This document shows positions 6,469-59,989 of a stretch of DNA of 64,000 bases, piece after piece; position 1 is the stretch's first letter; the number at the start of each line of letters is the position of its first letter. Below the pieces are notes generated by a model. That model saw only the letters and a list, made by a program, of their open reading frames with translations, was not told where the DNA came from and searched no databases. A program made the position numbers and the translations under genes. Source of the stretch: an uncultured Clostridium sp. (lineage in GTDB: Bacteria; Bacillota; Clostridia; Clostridiales; Clostridiaceae); assembly GCF_934754915.1 (NCBI RefSeq), contig NZ_CAKVKB010000003.1, positions 2,281 through 66,280 of the forward strand. Reading direction: 5' to 3'.

Positions 6469-6572
6469 ATATATATTTCAATAATAAAATTACATAATAA
6501 TTAGAAAAATATTAAAAAGATTTCATCTCACTGTCAATTGTTCATTGTACATTGTTAATTGAAATATATATA
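6469..6572 (-). repeat. TATATA-ended intergenic repeat, copy A (two-and-a-half-module form)
   Basis: The minus strand reads TATATATATTTCAATTAACAATGTACAATGAACAATTGACAGTGAGATGAAATC...TTATTATGTAATTTTATTATTGAAATATATAT. The terminal arms ATATATATTTCAAT / ATTGAAATATATAT are complementary at 14 of 14 positions. Confidence 0.85.
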
Positions 6573-6701
6573 GTTTTAATTTTTTGATAAGACTTTTAGA
6601 TGAATATGTATAAGAATATTAAAATTTCTATTGATTGAATAAAAATATGAAAATGAGAAATAATAGAGAAATGATTGATAATCGTAAAAGGAGGATTACA
6701 A

Positions 6702-7283
6702 GTGGAAGAATTATTTTTAAATAAAAGAATCAAAAATTCATCTAAGAGTGCAAAAAAAGAGAGAAGAAAAGGATTAGTTCCAGGCATAATATATGGAAAA
6801 AAGCTTGGAAGTTTAATGTTTGAAATTGGAGAAATGAATTTAGTAAGCGAGCTTAACATTATAGGTGAACATGGAATTGTAAATTTTGATCTTGATGGAT
6901 ATAATGGTACTGCAATGATCAAAGATGTTCAAAAAGATGCTATTACACATAAGATAGTACACATAGATTTAGAAGAAATATGTTCGGATGAAAATATTAC
7001 TGCAGAAATTCCTATAAAATTCAATGGCAAGGATTTTTTGAGTCAGAAAGGAATTGTGCTTCAGAGTCAGAAAGATTCTGTAAAAGTATCATGTAAACCA
7101 GAAGACCTTCCAAAGAGTATAAATATAGATGTTTCAAAAGCAAAAGTTGGAAGTGTTTATAAACTATCTGATTTAGAAATAGGAGATGAAATTTCAATAG
7201 TAGAAGATTTATCATCAGTGTGTGCGTCAGTTGTTAATGAACAATTTATACCAACAGGAGATGATGAGAATAAAGGAAAATAA
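6702..7283 (+). CDS. 50S ribosomal protein L25 / Ctc, diverged paralogue, copy 2
   Basis: It aligns along its whole length with copy 1 (KERRKGLVPGIIYGKK, GEHGIVNFDLDG, HIDLEE, QKDSVKVSC). The likely start is GTG 6702, 7 nt after AAAGGAGG. The track start at 6675 lacks an RBS. Confidence 0.8.
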   Translation: MEELFLNKRIKNSSKSAKKERRKGLVPGIIYGKKLGSLMFEIGEMNLVSELNIIGEHGIVNFDLDGYNGTAMIKDVQKDAITHKIVHIDLEEICSDENITAEIPIKFNGKDFLSQKGIVLQSQKDSVKVSCKPEDLPKSINIDVSKAKVGSVYKLSDLEIGDEISIVEDLSSVCASVVNEQFIPTGDDENKGK

Positions 7284-7374
7284 ATAAGATTATTTACAAA
7301 TTTTTTCTATATTGTTTTGTAGAAATTTATAAATATAATTCTTTTTTATAGATTAGTATATAAATATGAGTTAT

Positions 7375-7422
7375 AATAGTATTGATATTGTTTACGATAA
7401 AATTAAATATATCAATACTATT
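7375..7422. repeat. 14-bp perfect inverted repeat (AATAGTATTGATAT ... ATATCAATACTATT) with a 20-nt spacer
   Basis: Read directly from the sequence. It sits in the roughly 490-bp gap between ctc copy 2 and the phosphohexomutase gene. Confidence 0.5.
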
Positions 7423-7445
7423 GTTATATTGATTTGATTAAAAGT

Positions 7446-7510
7446 GATTATGTTACAATAAATATGGTTATATTTTTAGATAAATTTGAAAAATTTTATA
7501 ATAAGTATAT
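7446..7510 (+). repeat. possible deleted relic of the D/J-type intergenic repeat
   Basis: GATTATGTTACAATAAATATG...TATATTTTTAGATAAATTT...TATAATAAGTATAT resembles the left end and the GATAAAT extension of copy D. The central part is missing. Confidence 0.3.
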
Positions 7511-7774
7511 GCTGATTTGAAATATATGTTTTTAAAAAATCAATGATAACGATATTCATTTGAAAAGGAATAATATTATATTATTAAATAAATGTAATAA
7601 AAATGTTAGAATTAATATACAAATATGACAAAATTAAATGATGATATTATTTTCAATACGATAAAGTTATTTAAATGACATTAATGAATAATTTTAGAAA
7701 TTGAATTTAAAACTATTTTTTATTACAGATAAATATTGTATAATATAACTGAAAAAAATGGGGAGGGAATTAAA

Positions 7775-9502: not shown

Positions 9503-9506
9503 TAAT

Positions 9507-9618: not shown

Positions 9619-9640
9619 ATTAATTGTGATGTATATATAT
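9619..9640 (-). repeat. isolated left-end fragment of the intergenic repeat (inverted)
   Basis: ATTAATTGTGATGTATATATAT matches the reverse complement of the left end (ATATATA..CAATTAAT). Confidence 0.4.
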
Positions 9641-9664
9641 TAAATTTGAATAATTTAGATTATA

Positions 9665-9772
9665 ATATATATTGCAGTTAATAATTTATTATATATTCCA
9701 ATTAACAATAAAGGATGAATTCTTTTAAAGATTTCTTCAATTATTATGCAAGTTTATTATTAGAACATATAT
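9665..9772 (+). repeat. intergenic repeat copy B (one-module form) preceded by a duplicated left-end fragment
   Basis: ATATATATTGCAGTTAATAATTTATT comes first, then ATATATTCCAATTAACAATAAAGGATGAATTCTTTTAAAGATTTCTTCAATTATTATGCAAGTTTATTATTAGAACATATAT. Confidence 0.8.
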
Positions 9773-9956
9773 GTTTTAATTTTGTAGTTTTGTTATATAA
9801 ATTCATACTTTAAGATATGGTTTTATAATATTAATTAACAAATTATAAACATTTCAGCATAATTTGTTTGAATGCTAAGATTGAATTTATTAGAAAGATT
9901 AAGATATATAATATAATTAAGATTTATTAACAATGACAATTAATAAGAGGTGCTAA

Positions 9957-11809: not shown

Positions 11810-11820
11810 TATGGTGAAAA

Positions 11821-18603: not shown

Positions 18604-18704
18604 GTGTAATAGCTGTCAGTGTAAAGAACAAATATATCTAATGGTGTTTTTTAATTGAAATATTAGGTATAATGTTAATTAATCTTTACAAGACAGCTAT
18701 TTAC

Positions 18705-18810
18705 ATATATATTACAATTAATAATGTATGATGGACAATCGACAATAAAGGATGAAATCTTTTCAAGATTTCTTTAATTATTATGTAATGTTAATCTTGA
18801 ATCATATATA
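18705..18810 (+). repeat. intergenic repeat copy C (multi-module form)
   Basis: ATATATATTACAATTAATAATGTATGATGGACAATCGACAATAAAGGATGAAATCTTTTCAAGATTTCTTTAATTATTATGTAATGTTAATCTTGAATCATATATA. Confidence 0.85.
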
Positions 18811-18887
18811 GGTTTCAAGATTAAAATTATTTTGAAAATTTACATGATAAAAACATCAAAGATTTAATCCTTAAATTCTAAATTGCA

Positions 18888-19784
18888 CTATACATCAAGA
18901 TTAGGTAATTCAGTTAAAGACTTAAATTGATATCCTGAATTTTTGAGATCTGTTATTACTTGTTTCAATATTTTTGTATTTGTATCAGAGACTGCATGAA
19001 GCAGCATTATGCATCCAGGATGAGAACCATTTACTATTTTTTCTATTCCTTTTGATTCAGAAGGTTGATCGTTTATAAGCCAGTCTTTATAGGCGAAACT
19101 CCAAAAAATCGTTTTATATCCTAATTGTTTAGTCATTTCTAATGATTCTTTTGAGTATTTTCCCATAGGAGGTCTGAAAAATTTGGGCATATCCTGTCCT
19201 GTTAATTCTTTGTATGCATCTTCAACACCTGTGAATTCAGATTTAAACTTTTCTGAATCATGGATTTGTGCCATTGATGGATGATGTACACTGTGATTTC
19301 CTACAATATGTCCCTCGTTTACCATTCTTTTAATTAAGTCAGGTTCTGTATCGATATATGGTTTTACTACAAAGAAGGCAGCAGGAACTTCTAATTCCTT
19401 TAATGTATCTAAAATTTTTCCTGTATTTCCATTTTCATATCCTTCATCAAATGTAAGGTATATTGTTTTATTTGATGTATCGCCTAAATAGTATCCATCA
19501 TTTTCTTTCAAAAAATTCAGACATTCTTTAGGAGGTTCAGAAGGATTATCTTTTCCTTTTCCAACATAATACCAGTTTAATTCGCTTTGATCATTTGAAA
19601 AAGTAAATATATCTTCAAAATCTTCAAAATCAGCAAGATCTCCTAGTGCTCCATCATCTGAAAAATAATCCTCATTATATATTTTTTCAGAGTTATTAAA
19701 TGAAGCATATGCAGGCATGGCAATAGATGAAGAAAAATTGATAAATAACGAAAAAGCAACTAAATATTTTAGAGTTCTATTCAT
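18888..19784 (-). CDS. polysaccharide deacetylase family protein, PdaA-like, secreted
   Basis: It has a signal peptide and the NodB motifs TFDEG, HSVHHPS, RPPMG and LLHAVS. Confidence 0.8.
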   Translation of the reverse strand: MNRTLKYLVAFSLFINFSSSIAMPAYASFNNSEKIYNEDYFSDDGALGDLADFEDFEDIFTFSNDQSELNWYYVGKGKDNPSEPPKECLNFLKENDGYYLGDTSNKTIYLTFDEGYENGNTGKILDTLKELEVPAAFFVVKPYIDTEPDLIKRMVNEGHIVGNHSVHHPSMAQIHDSEKFKSEFTGVEDAYKELTGQDMPKFFRPPMGKYSKESLEMTKQLGYKTIFWSFAYKDWLINDQPSESKGIEKIVNGSHPGCIMLLHAVSDTNTKILKQVITDLKNSGYQFKSLTELPNLDV

Positions 19785-21262: not shown

Positions 21263-21479
21263 TATTTAGAGTATTATTTTAATGCTTCTTATTTAAGAAA
21301 CAGAAATATCTGTATCTGAAGTAAGAGGCATTTTTCATGAAAAATATTCAATATTATGTCAAAGAAAAACAAGAAGTGGATTTTTATTGAATTTTTTGAT
21401 AAAATAAAATTTAGCATATACTTTCAGTAATAATTTGTAATTAAAGTTTTTTAGTATAATGCAGATTGTAATCGATGAG

Positions 21480-21592
21480 TATTATATTATGTTGCAATTC
21501 ACAATAAAAAATGAAATCTTTGAAAGAGTTCTTTGATATTTTTATATGTATATGATAAATATTAAATATAATTTTAATATTGTAATATATAT
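21480..21592 (+). repeat. intergenic repeat copy D (D/J subfamily with alternative right half)
   Basis: TTATATTATGTTGCAATTCACAATAAAAAATGAAATCTTTGAAAGAGTTCTTTGATATTTTTATATGTATATGATAAAT...ATTTTAATATTGTAATATATAT. Confidence 0.7.
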
Positions 21593-21675
21593 TTAATTTA
21601 ATAAAAATAGATATTTATTTTGTAAATTAAATAGATCTGCTAAAAAACAGATAAAAAGAGGAGGGGGATTTTAGG

Positions 21676-23424: not shown

Positions 23425-23576
23425 TATTGAATTTTTATAATTAAAGTTAAATTATTAGGATTATATCAAATTAAGTTTTTTAATTAAGATATAATCCTTA
23501 AATAATTTTATGTGAATTTACTTCAAAAACTTATGTATATTGTTATTTGTACGAAAATATAATAGAGTTATTAAAG

Positions 23577-23661
23577 TATATATGTCGCAATTAACAATAA
23601 ATGCTGAAGTCTTTTAAGATTTTCTTGACTGTTATGTCGTTTTATTATTTAGAACATATAT
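23577..23661 (+). repeat. intergenic repeat copy E (one-module form)
   Basis: TATATATGTCGCAATTAACAATAAATGCTGAAGTCTTTTAAGATTTTCTTGACTGTTATGTCGTTTTATTATTTAGAACATATAT. It ends about 30 nt before the next start codon. Confidence 0.8.
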
Positions 23662-23692
23662 AAATTATAATATCACTTCAGAGGTGAGGAAG

Positions 23693-25862: not shown

Positions 25863-26060
25863 ATATAAATGCTGCTGTATTTTTATTTACGAATATGTTG
25901 CTATAAATATAAAAATCTATATGTATTCTGAAAATGAAATTAATTAATAATAATATTATTAAATATGGATATTTCATAATTATAAATCCATATAGTTAAA
26001 ATCAACATATAATATACATGTTTATATTTGACATAATGTATATTTATTATTTTTGAGAAT

Positions 26061-26177
26061 TATACTAATATGAAAAATCCTCAGATAATAAAATTACATA
26101 ATAGTTAACGAAATCTTGAAAAGATTCCATCATTCATTATCAATTCTCCATTGTTAATTGTAATATGTATATATATA
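26061..26177 (-). repeat. intergenic repeat copy F (two-module form)
   Basis: The minus strand reads TATATATATACATATTACAATTAACAATGGAGAATTGATAATGAATGATGGAATCTTTTCAAGATTTCGTTAACTATTATGTAATTTTATTATCTGAGG... The right end is degenerate. Confidence 0.75.
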
Positions 26178-28440: not shown

Positions 28441-28472
28441 GGAATATTCATACTTTTTATTTAATGTAAACC

Positions 28473-28504
28473 GTCAATTGTATATTATTAATTGAAATAT
28501 ATAC
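28473..28504 (-). repeat. left-end fragment of the intergenic repeat (copy G)
   Basis: The minus strand reads GTATATATTTCAATTAATAATATACAATTGAC. Only the terminal arm and modules are present. Confidence 0.6.
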
Positions 28505-28547: not shown

Positions 28548-28689
28548 TTGACACAATAAAAAATAAGTGTTATTCTTACACAAAGAATAACCTTTAATTT
28601 GATTCAGAGAGATCAATAAGGAAGTTATATGACAATATTTTATGTATCAGGATTATTGTGTCTTCCTTTGATTAAGGAAGATTTTTTTT
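28548..28689 (+). promoter_or_regulatory. pyr operon promoter plus PyrR-type transcription attenuator
   Basis: The promoter is TTGACA-17-TATTCT. The binding hairpin is CCTTTAATTTGATTCAGAGAGATCAATAAGGAAG. An AAGGAAG copy can pair alternatively with the terminator TCTTCCTT-tgatt-AAGGAAGA followed by T8. Confidence 0.8.
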
Positions 28690-28773
28690 ATAAAAATTAT
28701 ACATAAAAGTTAATGTTTATTATAATTTCCTACCTTTAAATTAACACAGAGAGGTTAAGAAGGAGTGATAAAA

Positions 28774-33162: not shown

Positions 33163-34059
33163 ATGATGAAGGTAAATATTAATGGTGTAGAATTTAAGAA
33201 TCCTGTAATTGCTGCATCAGGAACTTTTGGTTTTGGAGCTGAGTATAATAATTTTTATGATGTTGGAATTCTTGGTGGGATATCATCAAAAGGTCTTACT
33301 ATAAATCCAAAAGCAGGGAATGATGGACTTAGAGTATTTGAAACTCCTTCTGGAATGATGAATTCTGTAGGACTTAATAATCCTGGAATAGATGCATTTA
33401 TAGAAAATGAGCTTCCTAAAATGAGAAAGCTTGGTACAAATGTTATAGCTAACATAGGTGGAGGATGTATTGATGATTATGTGGCTGCTGTTACTAAAAT
33501 AAATGAAACAGATGTTGATATGATTGAACTTAATATATCCTGTCCAAATGTAAAGCATGGAGGAATGGCATTTGGAATAAAATCAAACGTTGCATATGAT
33601 GTTGTTAAGGAAATAAAATCAATTGTAAAAAAACCATTAATGGTTAAATTGTCACCTAATGCTGAAGATATAGTTGATATGGCAGTTAAATGTCAGGAAG
33701 CTGGAGCTGATTCCATTTCACTTATAAACACTTTAAAAGGTATGGCAATTGACATATATAAGAGAAAGCCAGTATTTAATAATGTAACAGCAGGTCTTTC
33801 TGGTCCCGCTGTAAAACCAGTAGCTTTAAGAATGGTTTATGAAGTATCTAAAGCAGTTGATATTCCCGTTATAGGTCTTGGAGGAATTTCAAATGGGAAA
33901 GATGCTATTGAATTTATGATGGCGGGAGCAAGTGCTATTCAGATAGGTACAATTAATTTTATAAATCCTATGGCTGGAAAAGATATTATTGAAGAAATGG
34001 AAAATTTCTTGAAGGAACAAGGGATTAAAGATATAAATGAGATAGTTGGTATAATTTAA
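33163..34059 (+). CDS. pyrD: dihydroorotate dehydrogenase B catalytic subunit
   Basis: Class 1 DHODH motifs are present: [32 protein letters not shown]. The start is 33154, 33163 or 33166. Confidence 0.9.
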
Positions 34060-34142
34060 TGTTAATGAAAATTAATATTATATAATCTTTCTTTTAAGTG
34101 ATAAAATGATATTCATGTTACTCAGTATTATTATTTATTCAC

Positions 34143-34171
34143 TTGACAAAAAATTACTCTCAAAGTATAAT
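34143..34171 (+). promoter_or_regulatory. consensus sigma-A-type promoter (TTGACA-17 nt-TATAAT)
   Basis: The hexamers and spacing match the consensus exactly. It lies about 270 nt upstream of the flavodoxin-like gene. Confidence 0.6.
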
Positions 34172-34439
34172 AGTCCTATATCAGTACTATTAAAAACGAA
34201 TGAAAAATATAAAGGATATCAATACAAAACAAAAGTATTTTGTATTGCATGGCAGAGTTTTAGTATTATATATAAAAATTATGCCAGAAAAGCATTATAT
34301 TCTATTTAATCTTATGGACATATATTTGTTTAAATTTCAAAAAAATGTTTTGAGAATAACCTTTTGCATTTATTGCAAAAGGTTAACTTTAAAATCAATA
34401 GTCCTAAAACAATACAGTATTATGAAAGGAATAAATGAT

Positions 34440-34982
34440 ATGAAAATTTTAATTTTACATGGTAGTGCTCGCAAAAATGGAAATACAGGAATTTTAGCTG
34501 ATGAATTTGCTCGTGGGGCAAAAGATGCAGGGCATGAAGTTACTAGAATTGAATTAAAAGAAAAAGTAATTAAAGATTGTGTAGGATGTGGCATCTGTCA
34601 GACAAATGGTGGAAAATGTGTGCAGAAAGATGATATGTTAGATATTTACAATGAAATACTAGACACAGATGTCATTGCTTTCATATCTCCAGTATATTTT
34701 TACACATGGACTTCTTTAATGAAGCGTGTTCTTGATCGAACATTTGCTATCGAAACTTTACTTACTAATAAAATATTTTATTTGGTTTCAGCTGGAGCTT
34801 AACTAGAAGAGAAATATATGAAAACAATGTTTGATTGCTATCATCAGTATGTTTCATGTTTTCGAGGTGAAGGAAACAAAGATGGAGGGATTCTTATGGC
34901 TTATGGTGTGAATTCTCCTGCTGATGTTAAGAATACAAATTATATACAAATGGCATATGATTTGGGAAATGGAATTATGTAG
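34440..34982 (+). pseudogene. flavodoxin-like / NADPH-dependent FMN reductase family gene interrupted by an in-frame TAA
   Basis: The N-terminal part is MKILILHGSARKNGNTG...CVGCGIC...ISPVYFYTW...YLVSAGA, then TAA at 34800..34802. The same frame continues LEEKYMKTMFDCYHQYVSCFRGEG...DLGNGIM to TAG at 34980..34982. Confidence 0.7.
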
Positions 34983-35112
34983 AAAAATAAAGCTAAAAAG
35001 GCTTAGAAATGTTTCTTCAACTGGAATTAAACATAGTATATTAGTATAATAAATTTAAAATATAATTGACAATAATATAATTTGATGGTATCGTAATAAC
35101 AATGGATAAACC

Positions 35113-35204
35113 CCTTTAAATTGATTCGAGAAATCAATAAGGAAGTTATGAGAAACCGTAGGCGTATTATGTCTTCCTTTATTTTATAAAAGGAAGACTT
35201 TTTT
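35113..35204 (+). promoter_or_regulatory. second PyrR-type attenuator (upstream of pyrE)
   Basis: CCTTTAAATTGATTCGAGAAATCAATAAGGAAGTTAT is nearly identical to the pyrB leader hairpin. The terminator is GTCTTCCTT-loop-AAGGAAGAC followed by T6. Confidence 0.8.
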
Positions 35205-35333
35205 GTATATGTAAAAAATAATTAATGTATGCAAAATAAAGATTAAGAAGTTTGCGATTAAAATTAATTATTTAGGGGTAAGTGGCATCAGGCTACTTTG
35301 TTATTAATATTAAAATTAACGGAGGAATTAAAG

Positions 35334-40800: not shown

Positions 40801-40864
40801 ATATATAACAACATAATAAGTAAAGATTTTATCTTTCATTGTTAATTGAATTATACTTGTATAA
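40801..40864 (-). repeat. intergenic repeat copy H (short, one module, truncated centre)
   Basis: The minus strand reads ...ATAATTCAATTAACAATGAAAGATAAAATCTTTACTTATTATGTTGTTATATAT. It starts 8 nt after the merR-family stop. Confidence 0.65.
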
Positions 40865-41627: not shown

Positions 41628-41648
41628 TACAGTTTTCCCTCCGTTTTG

Positions 41649-41770
41649 TATATATGTTGCAAGATTAAAATTACATTTTAAATTTATCTGATACATGTAA
41701 AATATAAAAGAAATCTTGAAAAGATTTCATATTTCATTGTCAATTATCATTGTTAATTGCAATATATATG
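41649..41770 (-). repeat. intergenic repeat copy I (two-module form), directly upstream of the exonuclease RBS
   Basis: The minus strand reads CATATATATTGCAATTAACAATGATAATTGACAATGAAATATGAAATCTTTTCAAGATTTCTTTTATATTTTACATG...TTTTAATCTTGCAACATATATA. Confidence 0.85.
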
Positions 41771-41967
41771 AATAATATAATTATTAACTTGTTAAATTTA
41801 ATTATATAGTATTTACGTCAAAATTCAAATGAGATATAATTAAGAAGAATAATTATTATTAAACAATAATAATTTAAATATAAAAAATTACCAAAAATAT
41901 TATCTAATAATATTTTGTTTATAGGAAAAACTAATAGCATTAATAATCATATAAAGGAGGAAAATTT

Positions 41968-47628: not shown

Positions 47629-47667
47629 AGATAAATACATAGCTAATATGTATTTATCTATTTTTTA
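47629..47667 (+). terminator. Rho-independent terminator
   Basis: AGATAAATACAT-agctaat-ATGTATTTATCT followed by ATTTTTT. Confidence 0.8.
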
Positions 47668-47668
47668 T

Positions 47669-47779
47669 AATATATACTGCAATGTACAATTGGTAATTTA
47701 TAATGAAGAATGAATTTGTAGTAAGTTTTTTGACATTTTTATATATAGTCAGATAAATTTTAATATTGTAATATATATA
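47669..47779 (+). repeat. intergenic repeat copy J (D/J subfamily, degenerate)
   Basis: AATATATACTGCAATGTACAATTGGTAATTTATAATGAAGAATGAATTTGTAGTAAGTTTTTTGACATTTTTATATATAGTCAGATAAATTTTAATATTGTAATATATATA. Confidence 0.6.
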
Positions 47780-47851
47780 AATTAATATTTTTTAAATAAA
47801 TATTATGTGATAACATAGAAGTACAATGTTTTTATATTCAAGGAGGAAATA

Positions 47852-48488: not shown

Positions 48489-48778
48489 TTGACAATAATT
48501 TTTTCAATTTGTATAATTAATAAAGGTTAATTTTATTATGAAATATTCTATGAAGAGGATAGTACTTTAATTGATGCCTAAAGCGAGTCAGGACAGAGTG
48601 TAAGCCTGATAGGATAAATTGCAAGGAAACAGAACCTCAGAGAAATCGCCTGAAATGAGTAGGGATGGTCGCAGTTAAAGCTGCGTTAAAATTAGAGTGG
48701 CATATTATAATATATAATATGCAATTAGAGTGGTACCGCGAATAAATCGTCTCTTTTTGTTAAAGAGGCGGTTTTTTT
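48489..48778 (+). promoter_or_regulatory. consensus promoter plus T-box leader (Arg specifier) of argS
   Basis: The promoter is TTGACA-17-TATAAT (48489..48517). The T-box sequence AATTAGAGTGGTACCGCG lies at 48723..48740. The terminator CGTCTCTTT-loop-AAAGAGGCG plus T7 lies at 48748..48778. The candidate specifier AGA at 48631..48633 is followed by A and a CCTC that can pair with GAGG at 48555..48558. Confidence 0.85.
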
Positions 48779-48879
48779 AAATATAAAATATTATTGTTTA
48801 AATTTATATATTACGTATGTATAATTTTAAAATAATGATTGAAATTCAATGATTAAATTTATATAAAATGGAGGTAATT

Positions 48880-50568
48880 ATGGATTACAAAATTAAAATT
48901 GCAGAATTAATAAAAAAACATGTAGATTTAGATGCAGAACCTATAGAAAAGCTTATAGAGATTCCGCCAAAACCAGAGATGGGTGATTATGCATTTCCAT
49001 GTTTTCAATTAGCTAAAGTTATGAAAAAGGCTCCTAATATGATAGCACAAGAATTAAAGGAAGCTATGGACATAGATGGATTTGAAAAAATTGAAAATCT
49101 AGGACCATATCTTAATTTCTTTGTTGATAAAGGAACTTTTGCCGAAAAAACAATAACAAAAGTATTAGAAGAAGGAGATAATTATGGTGCTTCTAATGTT
49201 GGTGAAGGAAAAACAGTATGTGTAGAATATTCTTCACCTAATATAGCTAAGCCTTTCCATGTTGGACATTTATTTACTACAGCTATAGGAAATTCTTTAT
49301 ATAAGATGTTTAAAAAAGAAGGATATAATACAATAGGATTAAACCATTTAGGAGATTGGGGAACTCAATTTGGTAAGTTAATAAGTGCATATCACAGATG
49401 GGTTGATGAAGAAGCTTTAGAGAAGGCCCCAATAGATGAACTATTAAGAATATATGTTAAATTCCATGAAGAAGCTAAAAAAGATCCTAGTTTAGAAGAT
49501 GAAGCAAGAGCAAACTTTAAGGCATTAGAAAATGGAGATCCAGAAGCTACAGCTCTTTGGACTAGATTTAGAGAATTAAGCTTAAAGGAATTTGAAAGAG
49601 TATATGATATTCTTGGTGTTAAATTTGATTCATTAAATGGTGAAGCATTCTATAATGATAAAATGGATGCTGTTGTTGATGAATTAAGAGAAAAAGGACT
49701 TCTTGTTGAAAGTAATGGAGCACAAGTTGTTATGCTTGAAGATTATAATATGCCACCATGTATAGTATTAAAAGCAGATGGTGCATCAATATATGCTACA
49801 AGAGATTTAGCAGCAGCTATGTATAGAAAGAAAACTTATGATTTCTATAAATGTGTATATGTTGTTGGAACTCCACAGGCACTTCACTTTAAACAAGTGT
49901 TTAAGGTATTGGAACTTGCTGGTCATGAATGGGCTAAGGATTGTGTTCATGTAGGATTCGGATTAGTAAAATTTGCAGATAGAAAGTTGTCAACAAGAGA
50001 TGGCTCAATTGTACTTCTAGATGATTTATTAAGAGAAGCAGTTGAAAAGACTATGGAAGCAATTAAAGATAAGGAAGAAATTAAAGATAAAGAAGAAGTG
50101 GCAAAGAAGATAGGTGTAGGTGCAGTTATCTTTACATATCTTAAGAATTCAAGAGAGAAGGATATTGTATTTGATTGGAAAGAAATTCTTTCATTTGAGG
50201 GAGAAACAGGTCCATATGTACAATATGCTTATGCAAGAGGAAACAGTATATTGAAAAGAGCTGGTCAATGCAATGGAACTGTTGATTATAGCAAATTATC
50301 ATCAAAGGAAGAATTTGAATTAGTTAAGGCATTAGGAAACTTCAATAATGTGATAACTTTAGCGTTAGATAAACTTGAACCATCAATTTTAACAAGATAT
50401 GTAATTGAAGTTGCCAAAGGATTTAATAAATTCTATAATGCACATTCAGTATTAAATTTAGAAGATGAAGATTTAAAAGCAACAAGATTGAATCTTGTTA
50501 AAGCTTCATTACAGGTTATAAAGAATGGTCTTGAATTATTAGGAATTAGTGTAGTAGAAAAGATGTAA
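48880..50568 (+). CDS. argS: arginine--tRNA ligase
   Basis: It has a class I HIGH-type motif (PFHVGHL) and typical ArgS N- and C-terminal domains ending ...VEKM. Start is ATG 48880 after GGAGGT. Confidence 0.92.
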
Positions 50569-52030: not shown

Positions 52031-52759
52031 ATGTCAAATATAGGAGCATTTTTTGATTTGGATGGGACATTATATCGAGAAGGACTTATAACAGAAGTGT
52101 TTAAGAAGATGGTCAAATATGAGATAATCGGACAAGAAAGATGGTACAATGATGTAAGACCAGATTATATGAAATGGGATAAAAGACAGGGCGATTATGA
52201 TGATTACCTTTTAAAGATGATAGGTATCTATATGGAAGCTATAAAGGGACTAGAAAAATACAGGATAGAATATATAGCTAAGAAAATTGTTGAACAGAAA
52301 GGTGACAGGGTATATACCTTTACAAGGGATAGAATAAAGTGGCATAAGGAAAAAGGGCATACTCTTATAATAATATCTGGATCGCCTTCAGAACTGGTAA
52401 AAGAAATGGCAGAAAAATATGGATTTACAGATTATATTGGTGCTCAATATGTAATTGATGAAAAAAATCAATATACAGGAGAAGTGGTTCCTATGTGGGA
52501 TAGCAAAAGTAAAGAAAAAGCTATTGGTAATTTTGTAGAGAAATATGATATAGATTTGAATCAAAGTTATGCTTATGGGGATACGGCAGGAGATTATACC
52601 ATGTTTAAAAATGTAAAATATCCATATTGCATGAATCCGACCAAAGAACTTCTGCAGAAAGTAATAAAAGATAGAAATCTCATTGAAAAAGTTAATGTTG
52701 TAGTTGAAAGAAAAGATGTAATATACAATTTAGACATTGAAGATATACAATTTGTATAG
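52031..52759 (+). CDS. HAD-IB family hydrolase/phosphatase
   Basis: HAD motif I FFDLDGTL, motif II ISGS and motif IV GDTAGD are present. Start is ATG 52031 after GAGGATGTGAGG. Confidence 0.75.
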   Translation: MSNIGAFFDLDGTLYREGLITEVFKKMVKYEIIGQERWYNDVRPDYMKWDKRQGDYDDYLLKMIGIYMEAIKGLEKYRIEYIAKKIVEQKGDRVYTFTRDRIKWHKEKGHTLIIISGSPSELVKEMAEKYGFTDYIGAQYVIDEKNQYTGEVVPMWDSKSKEKAIGNFVEKYDIDLNQSYAYGDTAGDYTMFKNVKYPYCMNPTKELLQKVIKDRNLIEKVNVVVERKDVIYNLDIEDIQFV

Positions 52760-52773
52760 GAAAGAGTGGTACT

Positions 52774-53541
52774 GTGATTATTCGTGAAAATAAAGTGAAG
52801 GCAGATGAATATAGTAATGAAGTTATGATGAAATGTGATGGTATGGAATATGCGCCAGAAGAACTGATATTTTTTGATTTGGAACACTATGTTTATAAAA
52901 AGCCCAAATGTATTGGTGTTTTTGGAGCATGTGAATATAATCCAAGAATAAAGTCAATACTGGTTACTCAGTATATGATAGAAGATAAAGATGAAGCAAT
53001 AGATATATTATATCTTGCAAGAGATTATTTTATGAAAATGAAAAATAAAGGTAAAAAGGCTATTGTTACTTTTTCGGGAAATAATGACTTTACAGTTATA
53101 AATTATCTTTTTGAAAAGAACTCTATAGATTATGATTTTGACAAGTATTTTGATTCAATAGATATTCAGAAAGAATATGAAAAGGAAATGACTGGATCTA
53201 TAGGTTTGAAAAATCTTGAAAAGATATTTGATATAGTAAGGGAAGGGGAAGTAATAAGTGGTTCGAATCTTGCAAAAACTTTTCATAAAGTTATGAAAGA
53301 TAAGAGTTATTTTAAAAGAATGCCAGAAGAAAAAATAGAAAAAATTCTTCTATATAATGAACAGGATGTTGTGAACCTGTATTATATATATGTGAATTGG
53401 AAGAAATATATGAAAAATCATAAGGAATATGAAGAAGATAGTAAAGAATTGAATGAAAAAGATATAGATGATGATTGTATAGAAGAAATAGACAAAGATG
53501 AAAAGGGTTTGTTTTCATCTCATACAAATGAAGATATGTAA
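52774..53541 (+). CDS. RNase H-like (YprB-type) putative exonuclease domain protein
   Basis: It has FFDLE near the N-terminus, FSGNNDF, and YNEQDVVNL in the spacing typical of the YprB/PolB-like exonuclease family. It ends in an acidic tail. Confidence 0.55.
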   Translation: MIIRENKVKADEYSNEVMMKCDGMEYAPEELIFFDLEHYVYKKPKCIGVFGACEYNPRIKSILVTQYMIEDKDEAIDILYLARDYFMKMKNKGKKAIVTFSGNNDFTVINYLFEKNSIDYDFDKYFDSIDIQKEYEKEMTGSIGLKNLEKIFDIVREGEVISGSNLAKTFHKVMKDKSYFKRMPEEKIEKILLYNEQDVVNLYYIYVNWKKYMKNHKEYEEDSKELNEKDIDDDCIEEIDKDEKGLFSSHTNEDM

Positions 53542-53592
53542 AAATAATAAACAAACACTGACTTTCTAGAAGTAATACAGTACATTGCTTTT

Positions 53593-53630
53593 AAAAAGGG
53601 GTCTCTTAAATATTTAAGGGGTCCCTTTTT
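53593..53630 (+). terminator. long imperfect hairpin terminator
   Basis: AAAAAGGGGTCTCTTAAAT/ATTTAAGGGGTCCCTTTTT pairs with several G.U pairs and a trailing T-run. Confidence 0.65.
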
Positions 53631-53719
53631 ATATATAAAAAATCAACTTTGCAGACTATGTATTTCTGCTGTTTTAAAAAGTTATCCACAAAGTTTTCAT
53701 GAATATAATTTTCTGTAGA

Positions 53720-53752
53720 AAAATAAAAGCACGGCAAAAACCGTGCTTTTTA
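53720..53752 (-). terminator. Rho-independent terminator of gltX
   Basis: The minus strand reads AAAAAGCACGG-tttttg-CCGTGCTTTTATTTT, directly after the gltX stop. Confidence 0.85.
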
Positions 53753-53754
53753 AA

Positions 53755-55221
53755 TTATGCTTTTAAAAGTTCAATACCTTTATGCATTCTCTTTAAGGAT
53801 TCTTCTCTTCCAATTAATACAGCAATTTCAAAGGCTCCACCAGGAGTGAATGATTTACCTGAAAGTGCTGTTCTTATAGGCCATAACATCTGACCATTTT
53901 TAATTTCCAATGATTTGATTAATTCAAATACTTTTTCATGAAGAGTATCCATTGTCCAATGTTCTTCATCAATAGATTCAAGTACAGGTAATACTTTTTC
54001 TAAATTTTCTAATGAAGTTTCAAGTGTGCTTTTCATTTTTTTATGAACATAAAGATCAGTTGAATATTCTGGTAATTCTTCTAAGAAATCTATTTGTTCA
54101 GGAATATCATTTAATAATTCACATCTTGTATGTAATAATTCAGATATAAATTTAAAATCAAAATCTTTGTGTAATACTTTTTTGTATTGTTCCATAGCTA
54201 GTTCATGGAATTCTTCTAAAGATAATTTTCTGATATATTCACCGTTCATCCATTTTAATTTTGCATTATCGAATATTGCAGGTGATTTACTTATATCTTT
54301 ATAATCAAATTTTTCTATTAATTCATCAAGAGAGAAGATTTCTTCGTTTGATCCATCATTCCATCCAAGTAAAGCTATATAGTTTAGTACAGCTTCTTTT
54401 AAATAACCTTTATCTAAAAGATCTCCAAATGATGCATCACCATTTCTTTTAGATAGTTTATTGTGTTGGTCTTTCATTATTGGTGGACAGTGTACATAAA
54501 CGGGTACATCCCATCCGAAAGCTTCATATAATCTGTTATATTTAGGAGAAGATGATAAATATTCATTTCCTCTTACAACATGAGTTATACCCATTAAATG
54601 GTCATCTACAACATTTGCAAAATTGTAAGTTGGAAGTCCGTCAGATTTTATTAATATCATGTCTTCAAGTTCAGAGTTATCTACTGAGATTTTTCCATAG
54701 ATTACATCAGTAAATGTTGTTGTACCAGTTGTAGGGTTATTTTGTCTTATAACATAAGGGATTCCTTTTGCTAAGTTTTCTTCAATTTCTTCCTTTGAAA
54801 GATGTGCACAATGTTTATCATATTTAAAAGGTCTCTTTAATGCTTCAGCATTTTCTTTTAACATATCCAATCTGTCTTTTGAACAGAAACAGTAGTAAGC
54901 TTCACCTTTTTCTACTAATTTTTTTGCATATTCAAGATAGATGTCTTTTCTTTCACTTTGTACATATGGACCTACAGGACCACCTATATCAGGACCTTCA
55001 TCATGTTGTAAACCAGTTAATTTTAGTGTGTTATATATAATGTCAACAGCACCTTCAACTAATCTTTCCTGGTCTGTATCTTCAATTCTTAATATAAAGT
55101 CTCCGCCTTCATGTTTAGCAATAAGATAAGCATAAAGAGCAGTTCTTAAATTACCAACGTGCATATATCCAGTTGGACTAGGTGCAAATCTTGTTCTGAT
55201 TTTATTTGCCATTTTTTTCAC
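53755..55221 (-). CDS. gltX: glutamate--tRNA ligase
   Basis: The HIGH-type motif ([14 protein letters not shown]) and the KMSKS-type motif (KLSKRNG) are present. Length is 488 aa. Confidence 0.92.
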
Positions 55222-55301
55222 TCCTATAAATTTATTTTATTAAAGTAAATAATTATTTATAACAGAAGCATTTAAAATTAATACATTATGTAAAAATTAT
55301 T

Positions 55302-55409
55302 TATATATATATTGCAATTGACAATGTACAATGGACGATTGACAATGAAAGATGAAACCTTTGCAAGATTTCTTTAATTATTGTGTAGTTTTATTATTGA
55401 ATATACATA
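55302..55409 (+). repeat. intergenic repeat copy K (three-module form)
   Basis: TATATATATATTGCAATTGACAATGTACAATGGACGATTGACAATGAAAGATGAAACCTTTGCAAGATTTCTTTAATTATTGTGTAGTTTTATTATTGAATATACATA. It is antisense to both flanking genes. Confidence 0.85.
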
Positions 55410-55576
55410 AAGAATAAAATATTTATTTATATATTAATTCTGCTCATGTGTTCATTAACAATACTTCTATGATAGCTCAATGAATATTTGATGTCAATAT
55501 TTCTTATATATCAATGTAAGAAATATTATTAAAAAAGTAGAAGTGTGAAAAATATGAATAAAAATGGTTCTAAAAT

Positions 55577-56455
55577 TTAAGAATATTTTATTTTTAGTTC
55601 ATTTCCATCAGAGATAAAAGTAATGTTATTTTTTTTATCAGTTCTTAAAGTATATATATTTCTTTTATTTAATTTTTCAATAATATCCTTAGAAGGGTGA
55701 CCATACATATTGTTTTTGCCTACGCTTATAATTGTATATTTAGGAGAAACAGCGGTTAGAAATGAATCAGAAGTAGAAGTTGATGAACCATGATGACCAG
55801 CCTTTAAAACGTCTGCATTGATATTGTCATTTAAACTTATTATGCTGCTTTCAATTTCTTTTTCGGCATCTCCAGTAAATAGAAAAGAAGTCTTTCCAAA
55901 AGAAATTTTCATTATAGGAGAATAGTTGTTTTCATTGTCGTAAGTATCGTTTAGTGGAGAAAAAACATCAATGTAGACACCTTTACCTAAATCAATACTA
56001 TTACATCCTCGCTTTATTGTATTAATTTTTAAATTTTTGCTTTTTAATGAATCAATCATTTGTTCAAATAATTTTGTATTTGAGTATACTTTTGGGGCAT
56101 AAAATGAATTCACTTTATATGTATGTAATATGGTACTCATATTACCTATATGATCATCATGAGGATGTGTGGCTATAACGTAGTCTAATGATGAAATGTT
56201 TAAGGAATTTAAAAATTTAATTAATTTCTTTTTATGAGTTTTAGGACCACTGTCTATAAGCATATTTTTATTATTTACTTGAATAAGTATAGAATCACCC
56301 TGTCCAACATTAATATAATGTACATACATTATATTATCAGCTGATTTTGAAGTTAGGGGTTTTCTTTCCAAAAATGAAATTATTGAGAATAGAAATAGAA
56401 ATATAAAAAGAAAGATAAAATATTTTAGTTTTCTTTGTTTGATTCCAAAAATCAT
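55577..56455 (-). CDS. secreted or anchored MBL-fold hydrolase (ComEC C-terminal-domain-like)
   Basis: It has an N-terminal TM/signal segment and the motifs VGQGDSILI, ATHPHDDHIGN and LKAGHHGS. Confidence 0.75.
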   Translation of the reverse strand: MIFGIKQRKLKYFIFLFIFLFLFSIISFLERKPLTSKSADNIMYVHYINVGQGDSILIQVNNKNMLIDSGPKTHKKKLIKFLNSLNISSLDYVIATHPHDDHIGNMSTILHTYKVNSFYAPKVYSNTKLFEQMIDSLKSKNLKINTIKRGCNSIDLGKGVYIDVFSPLNDTYDNENNYSPIMKISFGKTSFLFTGDAEKEIESSIISLNDNINADVLKAGHHGSSTSTSDSFLTAVSPKYTIISVGKNNMYGHPSKDIIEKLNKRNIYTLRTDKKNNITFISDGNELKIKYS

Positions 56456-56794
56456 ATATGTCCTTTCTAAAATTAAAATTTATATATAATATCTATAATT
56501 ATTTCAACAAATCAAAATTGTATACATCATAATAGAAATACGAACAAACAATATGAAAAAACTCTTAATATTCATAAAAATTTTGATTTTAGATATATAG
56601 ATATGAGAGCATGAATACAGAATTATTAGAAAACATTTGTGATTTTAATAATAAAAATATTTTAAGATATTTTTAAAAATGCAAATAACTAAGATTGTAA
56701 ATTGCAAAAAATATGATATAATGATATAGATATGTGGAAAAATGATTTAAAATGAAATATTTAAAAATAAAAAAATTCATTTAAGGGGGAAGCT

Positions 56795-58552
56795 ATGAAG
56801 AAGGAATTTTCAATAAGCAATGATAAAGTAATGATAAATTTTACAGCCAAATATTGTAATACGTTTGAATCAGTATTAGAAAGCAATGGATTTAGACGAA
56901 TTTTAGAAATTTATCTTAATAGAGCCAAAAAGAAAAATTCAATATCTTATAGATATTTAAGTAAGGCAATGGAAACAGATAATATTATAGATATAAGAAA
57001 AAATTTGACTTATACAATAAGATATCTGACAATAATGGAAGCTGATGAGGCAGTTGGTATTAGTGAATTATATAAGAACATACTTAGTGATAAAGATAAA
57101 TTTATAAGTGTGGTGGAAGATATATATTTGTTCTGGAGAAAGCTTGAGCGATATACAATAGTCCATAGATATAAAGTTCAAGAGGGACTTGCAGCTGTAA
57201 GCTTTACTGAAGCTAATGCAAATTTTTCAGCTCTTATTTTAGATTTGTATAGAAAAATTGAAATGCATGTAGTTGGATATCAGCCAAAAGTATATAGGCA
57301 AATACCAGCAGGTGGAAATGCAGGTATAATGATTCAAGAGTTGGAGTGGGCTACACCAGAAGGATATGAGGCATTAGAAGAAATACCTTTTATTGATCAT
57401 ATACTTCTTGAGACACCATTTATAACTTATCCAAAAAGAAATACAAGAGATGGAATGTTTTCTGAAATAGACTATAATCCTTTAAAATACGCTGATATAA
57501 ACAAAGAACACTGGTTTTGCTATCCAGCAAAAATTGGAGGAATGATTATATTCATATATTTTCATAGAGATTTTATGGAACATGGAATAACTTTATGTAA
57601 TCTATTTGAAATGGCAAGAAGTGAAGAAACAAGGGGAAGAAAACCAGAAATGATTTTTGTATTTGGAGCGAAAGATGATGATGGTGAAGAACTTAAGACT
57701 GTATTCTATGAAGATGACAAAAATGATATAATGCTTGGTTATATTAATCATTCTGAAAAGATTGATTACTTTGGATATATGAAAAAGATGACTTTGACTC
57801 TCTATAATCTTCTTATGATAAAGAGAGGATGCCTTCCAATACATGGATCAATGGTAAATATATTACTTAAGAGTGGCGATGAAGCAAATGTGGTAATAAT
57901 GGGAGACAGTGGAGCAGGTAAGTCTGAAAGTCTTGAAGCATTTAGAAGCTTAAGTGAAGATTATATTTCAGACATGACAATAATATTTGATGATATGGGA
58001 ACATTTAAATTAGAAGATGGAGACATTATTGGATATGGTACCGAAATAGGTGCTTTTGTAAGACTAGATGATTTAGATCAAGGATATGCTTTTAAAGAAA
58101 TGGATAGAAGCATATTTATGAATCCTGATAAGGTAAATGCAAGACTTGTTATACCTGTTGCATCTTACAAAGAAATAACTAAAGGACATAAAGTAGATTT
58201 CTTCTTTTATGCAAATAACTATGAAGGACCTGGAGAGGAAGGAAAATACCTTAATTATTTTAATAGTCCAGAAGAAGCTAAAAAAGTATTTAAAGCAGGA
58301 GCAAGAATGGCGAAAGGAACAACAACTGAAAAAGGTCTTGTTGAATCTTATTTTGCAAATCCGTTTGGACCAGCACAAAAACAAGAAGCTACAAATATAC
58401 TTATAGACAAGTATTTTGAAGCTATGTTTGATGGAAATAAAGTTAAAGTAGGACAGATAAAGACATGTTTAGGCGTGGAAGGTCAAGAAAAAGATGGGCC
58501 AAAGAATGCAGCAATAGAATTATTTGATGAAATTAAAAAGAATACTAAATAA
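56795..58552 (+). CDS. uncharacterised 585-aa protein with HprK/PEPCK-like P-loop
   Basis: LPIHGSMVNILLKSGDEANVVIMGDSGAGKSESLEAF resembles the HPr kinase / PEP carboxykinase-fold nucleotide-binding segment. The N-terminal roughly 340 aa have no motif I recognise. RBS is AAGGGGGAAG. Confidence 0.5.
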   Translation: MKKEFSISNDKVMINFTAKYCNTFESVLESNGFRRILEIYLNRAKKKNSISYRYLSKAMETDNIIDIRKNLTYTIRYLTIMEADEAVGISELYKNILSDKDKFISVVEDIYLFWRKLERYTIVHRYKVQEGLAAVSFTEANANFSALILDLYRKIEMHVVGYQPKVYRQIPAGGNAGIMIQELEWATPEGYEALEEIPFIDHILLETPFITYPKRNTRDGMFSEIDYNPLKYADINKEHWFCYPAKIGGMIIFIYFHRDFMEHGITLCNLFEMARSEETRGRKPEMIFVFGAKDDDGEELKTVFYEDDKNDIMLGYINHSEKIDYFGYMKKMTLTLYNLLMIKRGCLPIHGSMVNILLKSGDEANVVIMGDSGAGKSESLEAFRSLSEDYISDMTIIFDDMGTFKLEDGDIIGYGTEIGAFVRLDDLDQGYAFKEMDRSIFMNPDKVNARLVIPVASYKEITKGHKVDFFFYANNYEGPGEEGKYLNYFNSPEEAKKVFKAGARMAKGTTTEKGLVESYFANPFGPAQKQEATNILIDKYFEAMFDGNKVKVGQIKTCLGVEGQEKDGPKNAAIELFDEIKKNTK

Positions 58553-58558
58553 ATAAAA

Positions 58559-58594
58559 AATACTAAGGGGGAAATGCCCTCTTAGTATTTTTTT
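58559..58594. terminator. bidirectional terminator overlapping the stop of the minus-strand gene
   Basis: AATACTAAGGGG-gaaatg-CCCTCTTAGTATT followed by a T-run. Confidence 0.8.
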
Positions 58595-59334
58595 ATTTTA
58601 TTTTTTATATTTTGGATAAATAAATTAAAGTGTTCAAATGATTTATTATTAAAATTACGGATGAATTTTCTATTATTTAATCTAAATCTATGGAATTTGA
58701 TTTCAATATTTTTAAATCTATAAGTAGATTCTTTGTAGAGGCTTAAAATTGGATTTGCTTTATCAAAAGAAAAATTAATTGAAGCAAATGCAAATGGTAA
58801 TGAAAATTTACTTGAATCTAAAAGTGAAAGTACAGTTAAAATAAAATCTGTAAAGAAGTAAAACAAAATAAAATAAAAACCTAGAATAGTAAAGAACTCT
58901 GGAATATTGCATATTACATTTATAATAACTGGATTAATTATTTTTATTATTAAAACTTCACCACTAGCCCATAATAATGAATAAGGAAGACAAACACGTC
59001 CGTGTATGTTAAAAGGATCATCTGTGTAGTCCCACCACTTTGTTTTAAAGATTTTTTCAAGTAAAAATCCAGTAACATATTCTAAAAATGATGTTATAAA
59101 AAATGCACTTAGAAATAAGAGTAAAAAATTATTTTTATATGGTTCTAATAAAAGAATAAGTGTAACGATGCAGAAACCATAAATAGGGCAAAATGGTCCT
59201 TTTAAAAATCCTCTATTAACAAATTTTTTTTCATTTTTAAAATAATAAGCGACTTCAAGACACCATCCGCCAAAAGAATAAAATGTAAATAAGTACACTA
59301 TATTATAAATATTGTTATTTAATAAATTAATCAA
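58582..59334 (-). CDS. polytopic membrane protein resembling the 'putative ABC-transporter type IV' (CmpB-like) family
   Basis: It has the N-terminal FYSFGGWCLEV motif and PFCPIYG, with about 6 TM segments. The family assignment is from memory. Confidence 0.5.
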   Translation of the reverse strand: MINLLNNNIYNIVYLFTFYSFGGWCLEVAYYFKNEKKFVNRGFLKGPFCPIYGFCIVTLILLLEPYKNNFLLLFLSAFFITSFLEYVTGFLLEKIFKTKWWDYTDDPFNIHGRVCLPYSLLWASGEVLIIKIINPVIINVICNIPEFFTILGFYFILFYFFTDFILTVLSLLDSSKFSLPFAFASINFSFDKANPILSLYKESTYRFKNIEIKFHRFRLNNRKFIRNFNNKSFEHFNLFIQNIKNKIKKY

Positions 59335-59445
59335 AGTAATTTAAGCCTCCTTATAAATAGCATTTGATTGAATTTATTATATTATATACCAGAATAAACT
59401 TTTAAAAAATTAATATTTTCTTAAAGGTTATTGAAATTTTTTTAA

Positions 59446-59482
59446 AAATAAATTCTGTACATATTTTGCACAGAATTTATTT
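59446..59482 (-). terminator. Rho-independent terminator of the DUF378-like gene
   Basis: AAATAAATTCTGT-11 nt-ACAGAATTTATTT (13-bp perfect stem). The minus strand has a T5 run after the stem. Confidence 0.8.
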
Positions 59483-59566
59483 TAGGTATTTATTATTTAT
59501 ATTAAAGGATATTATTTGTTGTAAAAAAGTATGTGTTTTCAAATTATATCCATGTATAAAAATATA

Positions 59567-59758
59567 TTATTGCTTTTTCATAAAGAATGAAATTGCATAT
59601 ATTCCAGCCAATCCTACAAGTCCATAAATTATTCTGCTTATAATGGAAGCTGTACCGAAAAGTGAATCTACTAGATTATATTGAAAAAATCCAATTAATC
59701 CCCAATTTATAGCTCCAATAATAATTAAAATAAGTGCAGTAATATCAAGATATTTCAT
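59567..59758 (-). CDS. DUF378-type small membrane protein
   Basis: It is 63 aa with two TM segments and the GAINWGLIGFF motif. RBS is GGAGTG. Confidence 0.7.
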   Translation of the reverse strand: MKYLDITALILIIIGAINWGLIGFFQYNLVDSLFGTASIISRIIYGLVGLAGIYAISFFMKKQ

Positions 59759-59906
59759 TTTAACACACTCCTATTATAAATTATTGATTTATACAAAATT
59801 ATTATCTGCTATTAGTTTAAATTTATGCATAAAATAAAAAGGAGAATTACATTGTTATATTAAAAATATTAAGAATTTACAGACTTATTTATAAAATTAT
59901 TTTTAG

Positions 59907-59989
59907 ATATATACGTTCCAATAATAGAACTGTTTAACAATTAAAGAAATCTCTGCTAAGGTTTTAACATTGTTAATTGGAATATATAT
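59907..59989 (-). repeat. intergenic repeat copy L (one-module form)
   Basis: The minus strand reads ATATATATTCCAATTAACAATGTTAAAACCTTAGCAGAGATTTCTTTAATTGTTAAACAGTTCTATTATTGGAACGTATATAT. It starts 5 nt downstream of the lrp-family stop. Confidence 0.8.

Follow-up and report, generated by a model that had tools for sequence, protein, structure and literature searches.

A dense family of short intergenic repeats in an uncultured Clostridium species, probably old miniature inverted-repeat transposable elements

Well-documented families of miniature inverted-repeat transposable elements (MITEs) are known from Proteobacteria and streptococci. Bacterial MITEs are shorter than 200 bp, non-coding and A+T-rich, carry inverted repeats with 5'-TA-3' termini, lie mostly between genes, and give rise to transcripts that are predicted to form a long stem-loop (Delihas, 2008; PMC2229807). 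The ends of the Correia elements of Neisseria (CREE/NEMIS) consist of a 26-bp repeat, TATAG[CT]GGATTAACAAAAATCAGGAC (PMC2649163). A description of a MITE family in Clostridium was not found in the literature, and the pan-genome paper on Clostridium neonatale gives insertion sequence (IS) families and no MITEs. Here, we describe a family of TATATA-ended intergenic repeats in a stretch of 64,000 nucleotides from an uncultured Clostridium sp. (assembly GCF_934754915.1, contig NZ_CAKVKB010000003.1, positions 2,281 to 66,280), which is called the window in the following. The repeats are interpreted as an old MITE family with a probability of roughly 0.8, and as an apparently undescribed family of a known class. 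Single copies are referred to by their first position in the window.

The window contains 11 full or nearly full copies and two clear fragments of one family. A profile trained on 10 of the window copies (nhmmer) recovered these copies with E-values between 9e-12 and 7e-24, and outside the training set it matched 18799-18897 (minus strand, E 2e-3), 28471-28504 (minus strand, E 0.019) and 40821-40852 (minus strand, E 0.024). In the alignment, all 12 positions listed in the initial annotation were found to be homologous sequence. The left-end 19-mer TATATTNCAATTRAYAATG was found 10 times with up to two mismatches, compared to 0.36 matches expected from dinucleotide shuffles, of which none out of 100 reached 10. 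The core 25-mer occurred five times with up to three mismatches (0.00 expected from the shuffles). Since the matches are far more frequent than in shuffled sequence, the family as such withstood this control.

All 13 pieces are intergenic, for which the chance under random placement is approximately 3e-10. The sole overlap with a coding sequence comprises 10 nt at the 3' end of a polysaccharide deacetylase gene, and with this exception the earlier statement that the copies lie outside of genes is correct. The intergenic share of the window is 18%; the copies account for 2.0% of the window and for 11% of its intergenic DNA. Four more copies were detected in the flanks, which were surveyed over 9 to 10 kb on each side (19 kb in total) via contigs with identical proteins. 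Window and flanks together hold 15 full copies in 83 kb, and the density of approximately one copy per 5 kb is maintained over this distance. As initially described, both orientations are found, with about nine copies on the plus strand and about eight on the minus strand of window and flanks. With respect to the neighbouring transcription, eight copies are in sense and four in antisense orientation. They occupy co-directional, convergent and divergent spacers, in 5' as well as in 3' positions. Many copies abut ribosome-binding sites (RBSs) or stop codons, which had also been noticed before; distances of 5 and 7 nt after stop codons and of 21 and 31 nt before start codons were measured, for example.

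The copies are about 80-138 bp long and have an A+T content of 80% (72% for the window). Every intact end reads TATATA, and the two ends form imperfect terminal inverted repeats. The left end is TATATAT(G)TTGCAATTAACAAT, while the right end, given as its reverse complement, is TATATATGTT(G/T)CAA(G/T)ATTAAAAT or ...CAATAATAAAAT; as written, the end pair reads TATATAT(G)TTGCAAT / ATTGNAACATATATA. In an alignment of 17 copies, on which the pairing and consensus-fold statistics are based, 84% of the cells of the 12-pair terminal helix are complementary, and in folds of single copies the two ends pair with each other, too. The four-part architecture proposed in the initial annotation (left arm, one to three modules, core, and right arm) was correct, but its "ATTRACAATG modules" are better described as a tandem 7-bp array in the left arm with the unit ATTGACA, of which each copy has two to five. 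Tandem Repeats Finder (TRF) reported such arrays with a period of 7 and with 5.3 and 4.3 units. The centre is formed by an 8-bp hairpin, GAAATCTT-TTC-AAGATTTC, with 89% of the cells paired. Two size classes were distinguished, a short and a long one, the latter with approximately 25 extra nucleotides in the right arm. Deletion derivatives that kept both ends are represented by 40801-40864 in the window and by a core-less copy of 62 bp in a metagenome contig (L111). The core has a single frame that starts with ATG, and several of the aligned copies have lost or shifted it. Within the species, the copies are only 53-84% identical to one another (mean 71%), which indicates that the family is old.

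The presence or absence of the repeats was compared between the window and three sister species (L002, L089, and L090), which are collinear with the window at 11-33 kb and share 70-90% nucleotide identity with it. The pieces at 18705, 18805, 21480, 23577, 26061, and 28473 are absent from the orthologous sites in all three species, and the spacers are correspondingly shorter. The spacers of L002 are too diverged to define exact empty sites, for which the closer L089 and L090 were used. No copy is present at the 21480 site of L002, L089, and L090 or at the 23577 site of L089 and L090. In L089, a diverged full-length homologue was found between pyrI and pyrC (E 2e-5, and 6e-11 with a wider profile). 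At the same site, L090 has no element and reads TTTTTT directly followed by GAAATATATAATTG; the corresponding spacers of the window and L002 are short and element-free. The comparison of orthologous spacers, which had been suggested as a check, thus yielded six sites empty in three sister species and one pair of a filled (L089) and an empty site (L090).

At all sites examined, conspecific strains (98.6-100% nucleotide identity) have the same copies as the window. Contigs assembled from short reads of other strains often end exactly at the copies, as is the case for Logan contigs at 26054 and for other contigs at the 41649 copy; such breaks are expected to be caused by dispersed repeats. In three strains (L174, L176, and L182), the sequence 5' of ldh fully diverges from the window at position 41857 and contains a different gene end and a T-run. 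This position is a rearrangement breakpoint and is located approximately 87 nt from the 41649 copy.

In metagenomes, the left-end pattern was detected at 66 loci. By means of the profile, copies were verified in L138 (full), in L120 (full-length, interrupted by an internal insertion), and in L111, L104, and L151 (core-less or left-end partial); these contigs are AT-rich. A protein encoded next to the copy in L138 shows 98% amino acid identity to one from a C. neonatale metagenome-assembled genome (MAG) at NCBI (L172), which holds the same copy; judged by this match, L138 is C. neonatale. With 71-76% identity, the C. neonatale copy is about as near to the window copies as they are to one another. 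The two C. neonatale sequences also differ by a 926-bp segment with a formate/nitrite transporter gene (L172:8242-9168 versus L138:5695-5696). L104:13108-13146 and L151:7114-7166 have an element end and its outer flank in common and are located beside an asd-dapA-dapB-dapH operon. Their interiors differ and point to variants of one insertion site that were produced by internal deletion or recombination.

In the remaining 1.3 Mb of Firmicute sequence around ychF, the profile detected no copy, and none of the seven loci with the left-end pattern in the viral_contigs set was confirmed by it. Blastn searches against PLSDB plasmids and INPHARED phages gave only partial matches at chance level (E≥1e-3). 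The core pattern ATGRAWYCTTTNNAAGATTTCTTYAAT had no match in the viral_contigs, genome_contigs, and metagenome_contigs sets; the lineage restriction deduced from this result was dropped, because the true C. neonatale copy fails the pattern, too. Within Rfam 15, the two blastn collections, and the full-text literature, the family is still without a name, and a literature search with sequence strings returned only unrelated human primers.

In agreement with the initial annotation, the Pfam tables of the window proteins list no transposase, integrase, or RAYT gene. Full-length insertion sequences were sought as inverted end pairs 300-4000 bp apart, and two such pairs were rejected. The pair at 55306-56713 in the window encloses the gene of a metallo-beta-lactamase (MBL)-fold hydrolase, and its supposed second end turned out to be normal promoter DNA rich in A+T, while a pair in L152 is located in unrelated, viral- or eukaryotic-looking sequence. 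A nested insertion at 9665 was discarded as well. After removal of the inner copy, only the 21-nt left end scores and no older right half does; a TA duplication at this site is therefore unsupported. The tail-to-tail join of two copies via a shared TATATA at 18805 and the solo left end beside the complete copy at 9690 look like transposon-typical junctions.

The initial proposal of a non-autonomous, MITE-like element is supported by the inverted repeats, the TA-rich ends, the small size, the lack of coding capacity, and the dispersal in both orientations. It gained further support from the empty sites in the sister species and from the lineage-specific insertion with a matching empty site. The comparative evidence speaks for formerly mobile DNA. 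The copies, which do not code for proteins, would have arisen from an insertion sequence by deletion. A trans-acting transposase encoded elsewhere, probably of the DDE type, would have recognised the imperfect inverted repeats over approximately 11-22 bp (5'-TAT(A/G)TTGCAATTAACAAT...) and would have inserted the elements into TA-rich (TATATA) targets, mostly between the genes of this genome with 27% G+C. The expansion probably took place in this Clostridium lineage after the split from the nearest sampled sister species. The family is fixed in all strains sampled and is now decaying, since no pair of copies exceeds 84% identity. Mobilisation by a transposase is inferred only, and the same holds for the family of this enzyme, for the length of the target-site duplication (TA, or up to TATATA or longer), and for any effect on neighbouring genes.

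Several observations weigh against the MITE interpretation. No transposase gene with matching ends was found in the window, in its 19-kb flanks, or on the other copy-bearing contigs. Among strains with 98.6-100% identity, no insertion polymorphism was seen at the sites examined, which does not speak for recent mobility. The comparison of L089 and L090 at the pyrI-pyrC site fits a target-site duplication of 6 bp or 10 bp or an unrelated 11-bp indel. TATATA flanks both ends of the element but is self-complementary, so that a direct repeat looks the same as an inverted one. Furthermore, a plain MITE could do without the variable heptad array and the conserved central hairpin, and this interpretation explains neither of them.

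In a bolder version of the MITE interpretation, which we consider unlikely, the copies would be more than junk. According to this version, they would form part of a MITE superfamily that occurs throughout Clostridium sensu stricto, and the subterminal ATTGACA heptads, variable in number, would provide several binding sites to a transposase that is as yet unrecognised. Those copies in 5' untranslated regions (UTRs) and intercistronic spacers which are necessarily transcribed would have acquired a role as hairpins in RNA processing or stability, in a Correia-like manner.

Annotation of the family is useful, as it makes up approximately 11% of the intergenic DNA, adjoins RBSs and stop codons, and breaks short-read assemblies. 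It explains the fragmentation of MAGs and should prevent false calls of small RNAs and promoters in these spacers. The copies may also be used as lineage markers for this uncultured Clostridium of the gut and for C. neonatale, which has been implicated in necrotizing enterocolitis. No concept is changed by the family, which is another example of a familiar class.

Of the other explanations considered, mobilisation of single-stranded DNA fares best, but is still improbable. The repeats would then be RAYT-mobilised REP/REPIN sequences or derivatives of IS200/IS605, recognised as a DNA hairpin with no need for inverted repeats. The conserved central palindrome would be in accordance with this mode of transposition, the constant TATATA flank could represent a cleavage or target motif, and no DDE partner was found. 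REP sequences, however, are imperfect palindromes of 20-40 nt, often arranged as inverted doublets, in genomes that encode a RAYT, whereas the repeats described here are units of 80-125 bp that possess genuine terminal inverted repeats and only one hairpin, which is central. No short palindrome with a GTAG-type head and no REPIN doublets were seen, and the REP-like option of the initial annotation was abandoned. IS200/IS605-derived elements have no inverted repeats but a hairpin at each end, and they insert with a strand bias. The copies in the window and flanks, with their one internal hairpin, show no preference for the leading strand (~9 plus, ~8 minus) despite the strongly positive GC skew of the plus strand, which also holds most of the genes. 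A gene for a Y1 transposase or RAYT was absent from the 83 kb.

A structured RNA had also been suggested initially. The repeats might be a cis-regulatory leader, a 3' element, or a family of small RNAs acting via the terminal stem and the central hairpin. Some copies must be transcribed, namely those at 23577 and 41649, at distances of 31 and 21 nt from the following start codons, and the copy in the mutS2 spacer (L170:4946-5030). Some copies fold better than shuffled sequences (z-scores down to -2.7), and in the well-paired central hairpin the L089 copy has one double change from C-G to U-A. The complementarity of the alignment as a whole argues against a structure maintained by selection on the RNA: the imposed structure is paired to 86.1%, compared to 84.1% in column shuffles, and double changes occur in only six pairs. 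The pairing is thus a consequence of conserved sequence and not of compensation. RNAalifold predicted no consensus pair for the 17 copies, and the z-scores of single copies lie between -0.1 and -2.7 for both strands, half of them being weaker than -1. Above a gathering score of Rfam 15, the window has a single match, a T-box (48541-48757); the 12 matches at E≤5 all lie outside the copies, and L138 is without an Rfam match, too. Moreover, the mixed orientation of the copies, their occurrence in 5', 3', convergent and divergent spacers alike, and the copy-free orthologous spacers of the sister species are difficult to reconcile with an RNA function, for which we see only a very slim chance.

Least probable of all is a non-mobile array bound by a regulator or nucleoid protein at the ATTGACA heptads and spread by recombination or kept by selection, because, although the number of tandem heptads varies between two and five and many copies adjoin RBSs or stop codons, the neighbours are unrelated housekeeping genes without a common regulon (ribosomal, pyr, pfk, ldh, tRNA synthetases), the whole unit of 100 bp including ends and core was copied rather than the heptads alone, the copies are lineage-specific while the same promoters of sister species do without them, and promoter-like sites are not enriched above shuffles. 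The scan for such sites in the 6-26 kb region gave 155 compared to 155.3 in shuffles and is uninformative in AT-rich DNA of this kind; reading the consensus by hand revealed no correctly spaced -35/-10 pair.

The individual copies, taken as members of a MITE family, differ in their state of preservation. The first (6469-6572, minus strand; nhmmer 6464-6577, E 4e-18) is a full short-type copy with about four heptads in the left arm, where TRF found a period-7 array at 6532-6561. It is located between two tandem L25/Ctc paralogues (5752-6333 and 6702-7283), the spacer of which also contains a strong terminator (6368-6414). At 9619-9640, a possible relic of a solo end, TATATATACATCACAATTAA on the minus strand, was recognised by eye. 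Together with the other pieces noted initially, a fragment at 18650-18672 and a relic at 7446-7510, it is plausible on inspection but gave no match to the profile. The 9665 locus, first regarded as one copy, was refined to a solo left end at 9668-9686 (listed as 9666-9686, plus strand, TATATTGCAGTTAATAATT; left-end pattern with two mismatches), which is followed after 4 nt by a complete 84-bp short copy that has two heptads (9690-9773, plus strand; nhmmer 9660-9776, E 2e-20; pattern 9692-9710).

The full short-type copy nearest to the family consensus (18705-18810, plus strand; nhmmer 18698-18817, E 7e-24) has an exact core 25-mer. It was found to be joined tail to tail with a degenerate long-type copy that had not been listed (18805-18897, minus strand; nhmmer E 2e-3), the two having one TATATA in common. 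A direct-repeat family (D12) ties the latter to 41649-41693 with 82% identity. The decayed left end of the 18805 copy includes the TAG stop and the final codons of the polysaccharide deacetylase gene (18888-18897). The insertion may have remodelled the C-terminus of the deacetylase; the orthologue in L089 has 297 amino acids, compared to 298 in the window.

Between ychF and a gene encoding a tetratricopeptide repeat (TPR) protein, a long-type copy with approximately 25 extra nucleotides in the right arm is located (21480-21592, plus strand; nhmmer 21475-21595, E 9e-12). The short copy at 23577-23661 (plus strand; nhmmer 23575-23667, E 4e-14) has two heptads. It ends 31 nt 5' of the start codon of the next gene and is probably part of the 5' UTR of this gene. 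The copy 5' of pfk (26061-26177, minus strand; nhmmer 26071-26177, E 4e-22) has a decayed right end. A fragment consisting of a left end and heptads (28471-28504, minus strand; nhmmer E 0.019; pattern with one mismatch) lies just past the terminator of a class-A beta-lactamase-like gene and is conserved among strains, yet more variable than its own flanks.

The internally deleted mini-copy (40801-40864, minus strand) was identified by the left-end pattern with one mismatch, by nhmmer (40821-40852, E 0.024), and by inspection of the sequence; it kept both ends and follows the stop codon of a MerR-family gene after 7 nt. The long-type copy at 41649-41770 (minus strand; nhmmer 41644-41774, E 2e-20) has the best-preserved inverted repeats. 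Its right end directly abuts the RBS of an RNase_T-like exonuclease gene, 21 nt before the start codon, and its fold, in which both ends are paired, has z-scores of -2.2 and -2.7. A further long-type copy is heavily decayed (47669-47779, plus strand; nhmmer 47666-47783, E 3e-13). Between gltX and the MBL-fold gene, there is a full short-type copy with five heptads (55302-55409, plus strand; nhmmer 55298-55411, E 1e-23; TRF period 7, 5.3 units, 55311-55346). The last copy in the window lacks most of the heptads (59907-59989, minus strand; nhmmer 59905-59992, E 1e-12) and is located 5 nt after the stop codon of an AsnC/Lrp regulator gene. The flank copy L170:4946-5030, approximately 4.3 kb upstream of the window start, constitutes the entire spacer of about 80 bp that separates the stop codon of mutS2 from the AGGAGG RBS of the next gene (2-thiouracil desulfurase family). 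Since the whole spacer is filled, this copy must be cotranscribed in an operon.

The genes of the window are housekeeping genes, including sbcCD, the two L25 paralogues, a cell-envelope polysaccharide cluster, ychF, pfk, and the pyr operon, as well as pfl, ldh, asnA, birA, argS with a T-box leader, and gltX. YchF is 91% identical to a homologue from a Clostridium MAG and 80-86% identical to those of other Clostridium and Sarcina genomes. The section 52728-64000 is 100% identical to ENA ERZ28614137 scaffold_294. The T-box leader (plus strand; 111.6 bits, above the gathering score) precedes argS (48868-50568) and is a case of ordinary tRNA-sensing regulation. A PyrR binding site below the threshold (28587-28691, plus strand; 41 bits, gathering score 54) was found 5' of pyrB, and a second related leader, matching the pyrB leaders of L089 and L090 to approximately 72%, is located 5' of pyrE (about 35099-35223). 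Strains differ by an indel at 34053-35321, where the window, L082, and L084 have a 1.27-kb segment with an FMN-reductase/flavodoxin-like gene, and L083 and L085 have approximately 45 bp instead. The MBL-fold hydrolase gene (55577-56455, minus strand) has a precomputed Pfam match to Anti-Pycsar_Apyc1 (PF23023), and its context is purely chromosomal housekeeping.

In comparison with described systems, the repeats share with bacterial MITEs the size, the absence of coding capacity, the inverted repeats, the A+T richness, the TA termini, the mostly intergenic position, the predicted folding of the transcripts as a long stem-loop, and the dispersal with presence/absence differences (PMC2229807). 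Generic MITEs of this definition include ERIC, RPE, and bcr1. The sequence of the repeats is unrelated to any family with which it was compared, and a variable number of subterminal heptads is unusual. Among Firmicute MITEs, RUP of Streptococcus pneumoniae is likened to the repeats by description only: it is intergenic, has a length of approximately 107 bp, occurs in many copies (108 in the case of RUP), and has TA termini and TA-containing targets (PMC2229807). For RUP, IS630-Spn1 is a candidate partner on account of the similarity of the ends, whereas no partner was found for the Clostridium family. RUP is often located within IS elements, while the Clostridium copies are situated between housekeeping genes.

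The Correia elements are closest in behaviour among the known systems, but they are not identical with the repeats, as their 26-bp end pattern has no match in the window with up to three mismatches. Counterparts of the heptad array and of the GAAATCTT hairpin are missing in Correia elements, and the inverted repeats of the Clostridium family are shorter and more degenerate and reside in a Firmicute host. For Correia elements, binding of the integration host factor (IHF), promoter activity, and cleavage by RNase III have been shown. TATA and the octamer ATTAACAA are present in the ends of both; being short and AT-rich, this common string is a lead or curiosity and no evidence of homology. Both families reach a density of about one copy per 5-8 kb, are almost entirely intergenic with copies abutting genes, and have no known transposase (PMC2229807, PMC2649163). 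Each has a shorter and a longer size class, distinguished by an internal block (approximately 107 and 155 bp in Correia elements), and both have TATA-initiated, TA-rich termini with inverted repeats that pair as a long stem (PMC2229807, PMC2649163).

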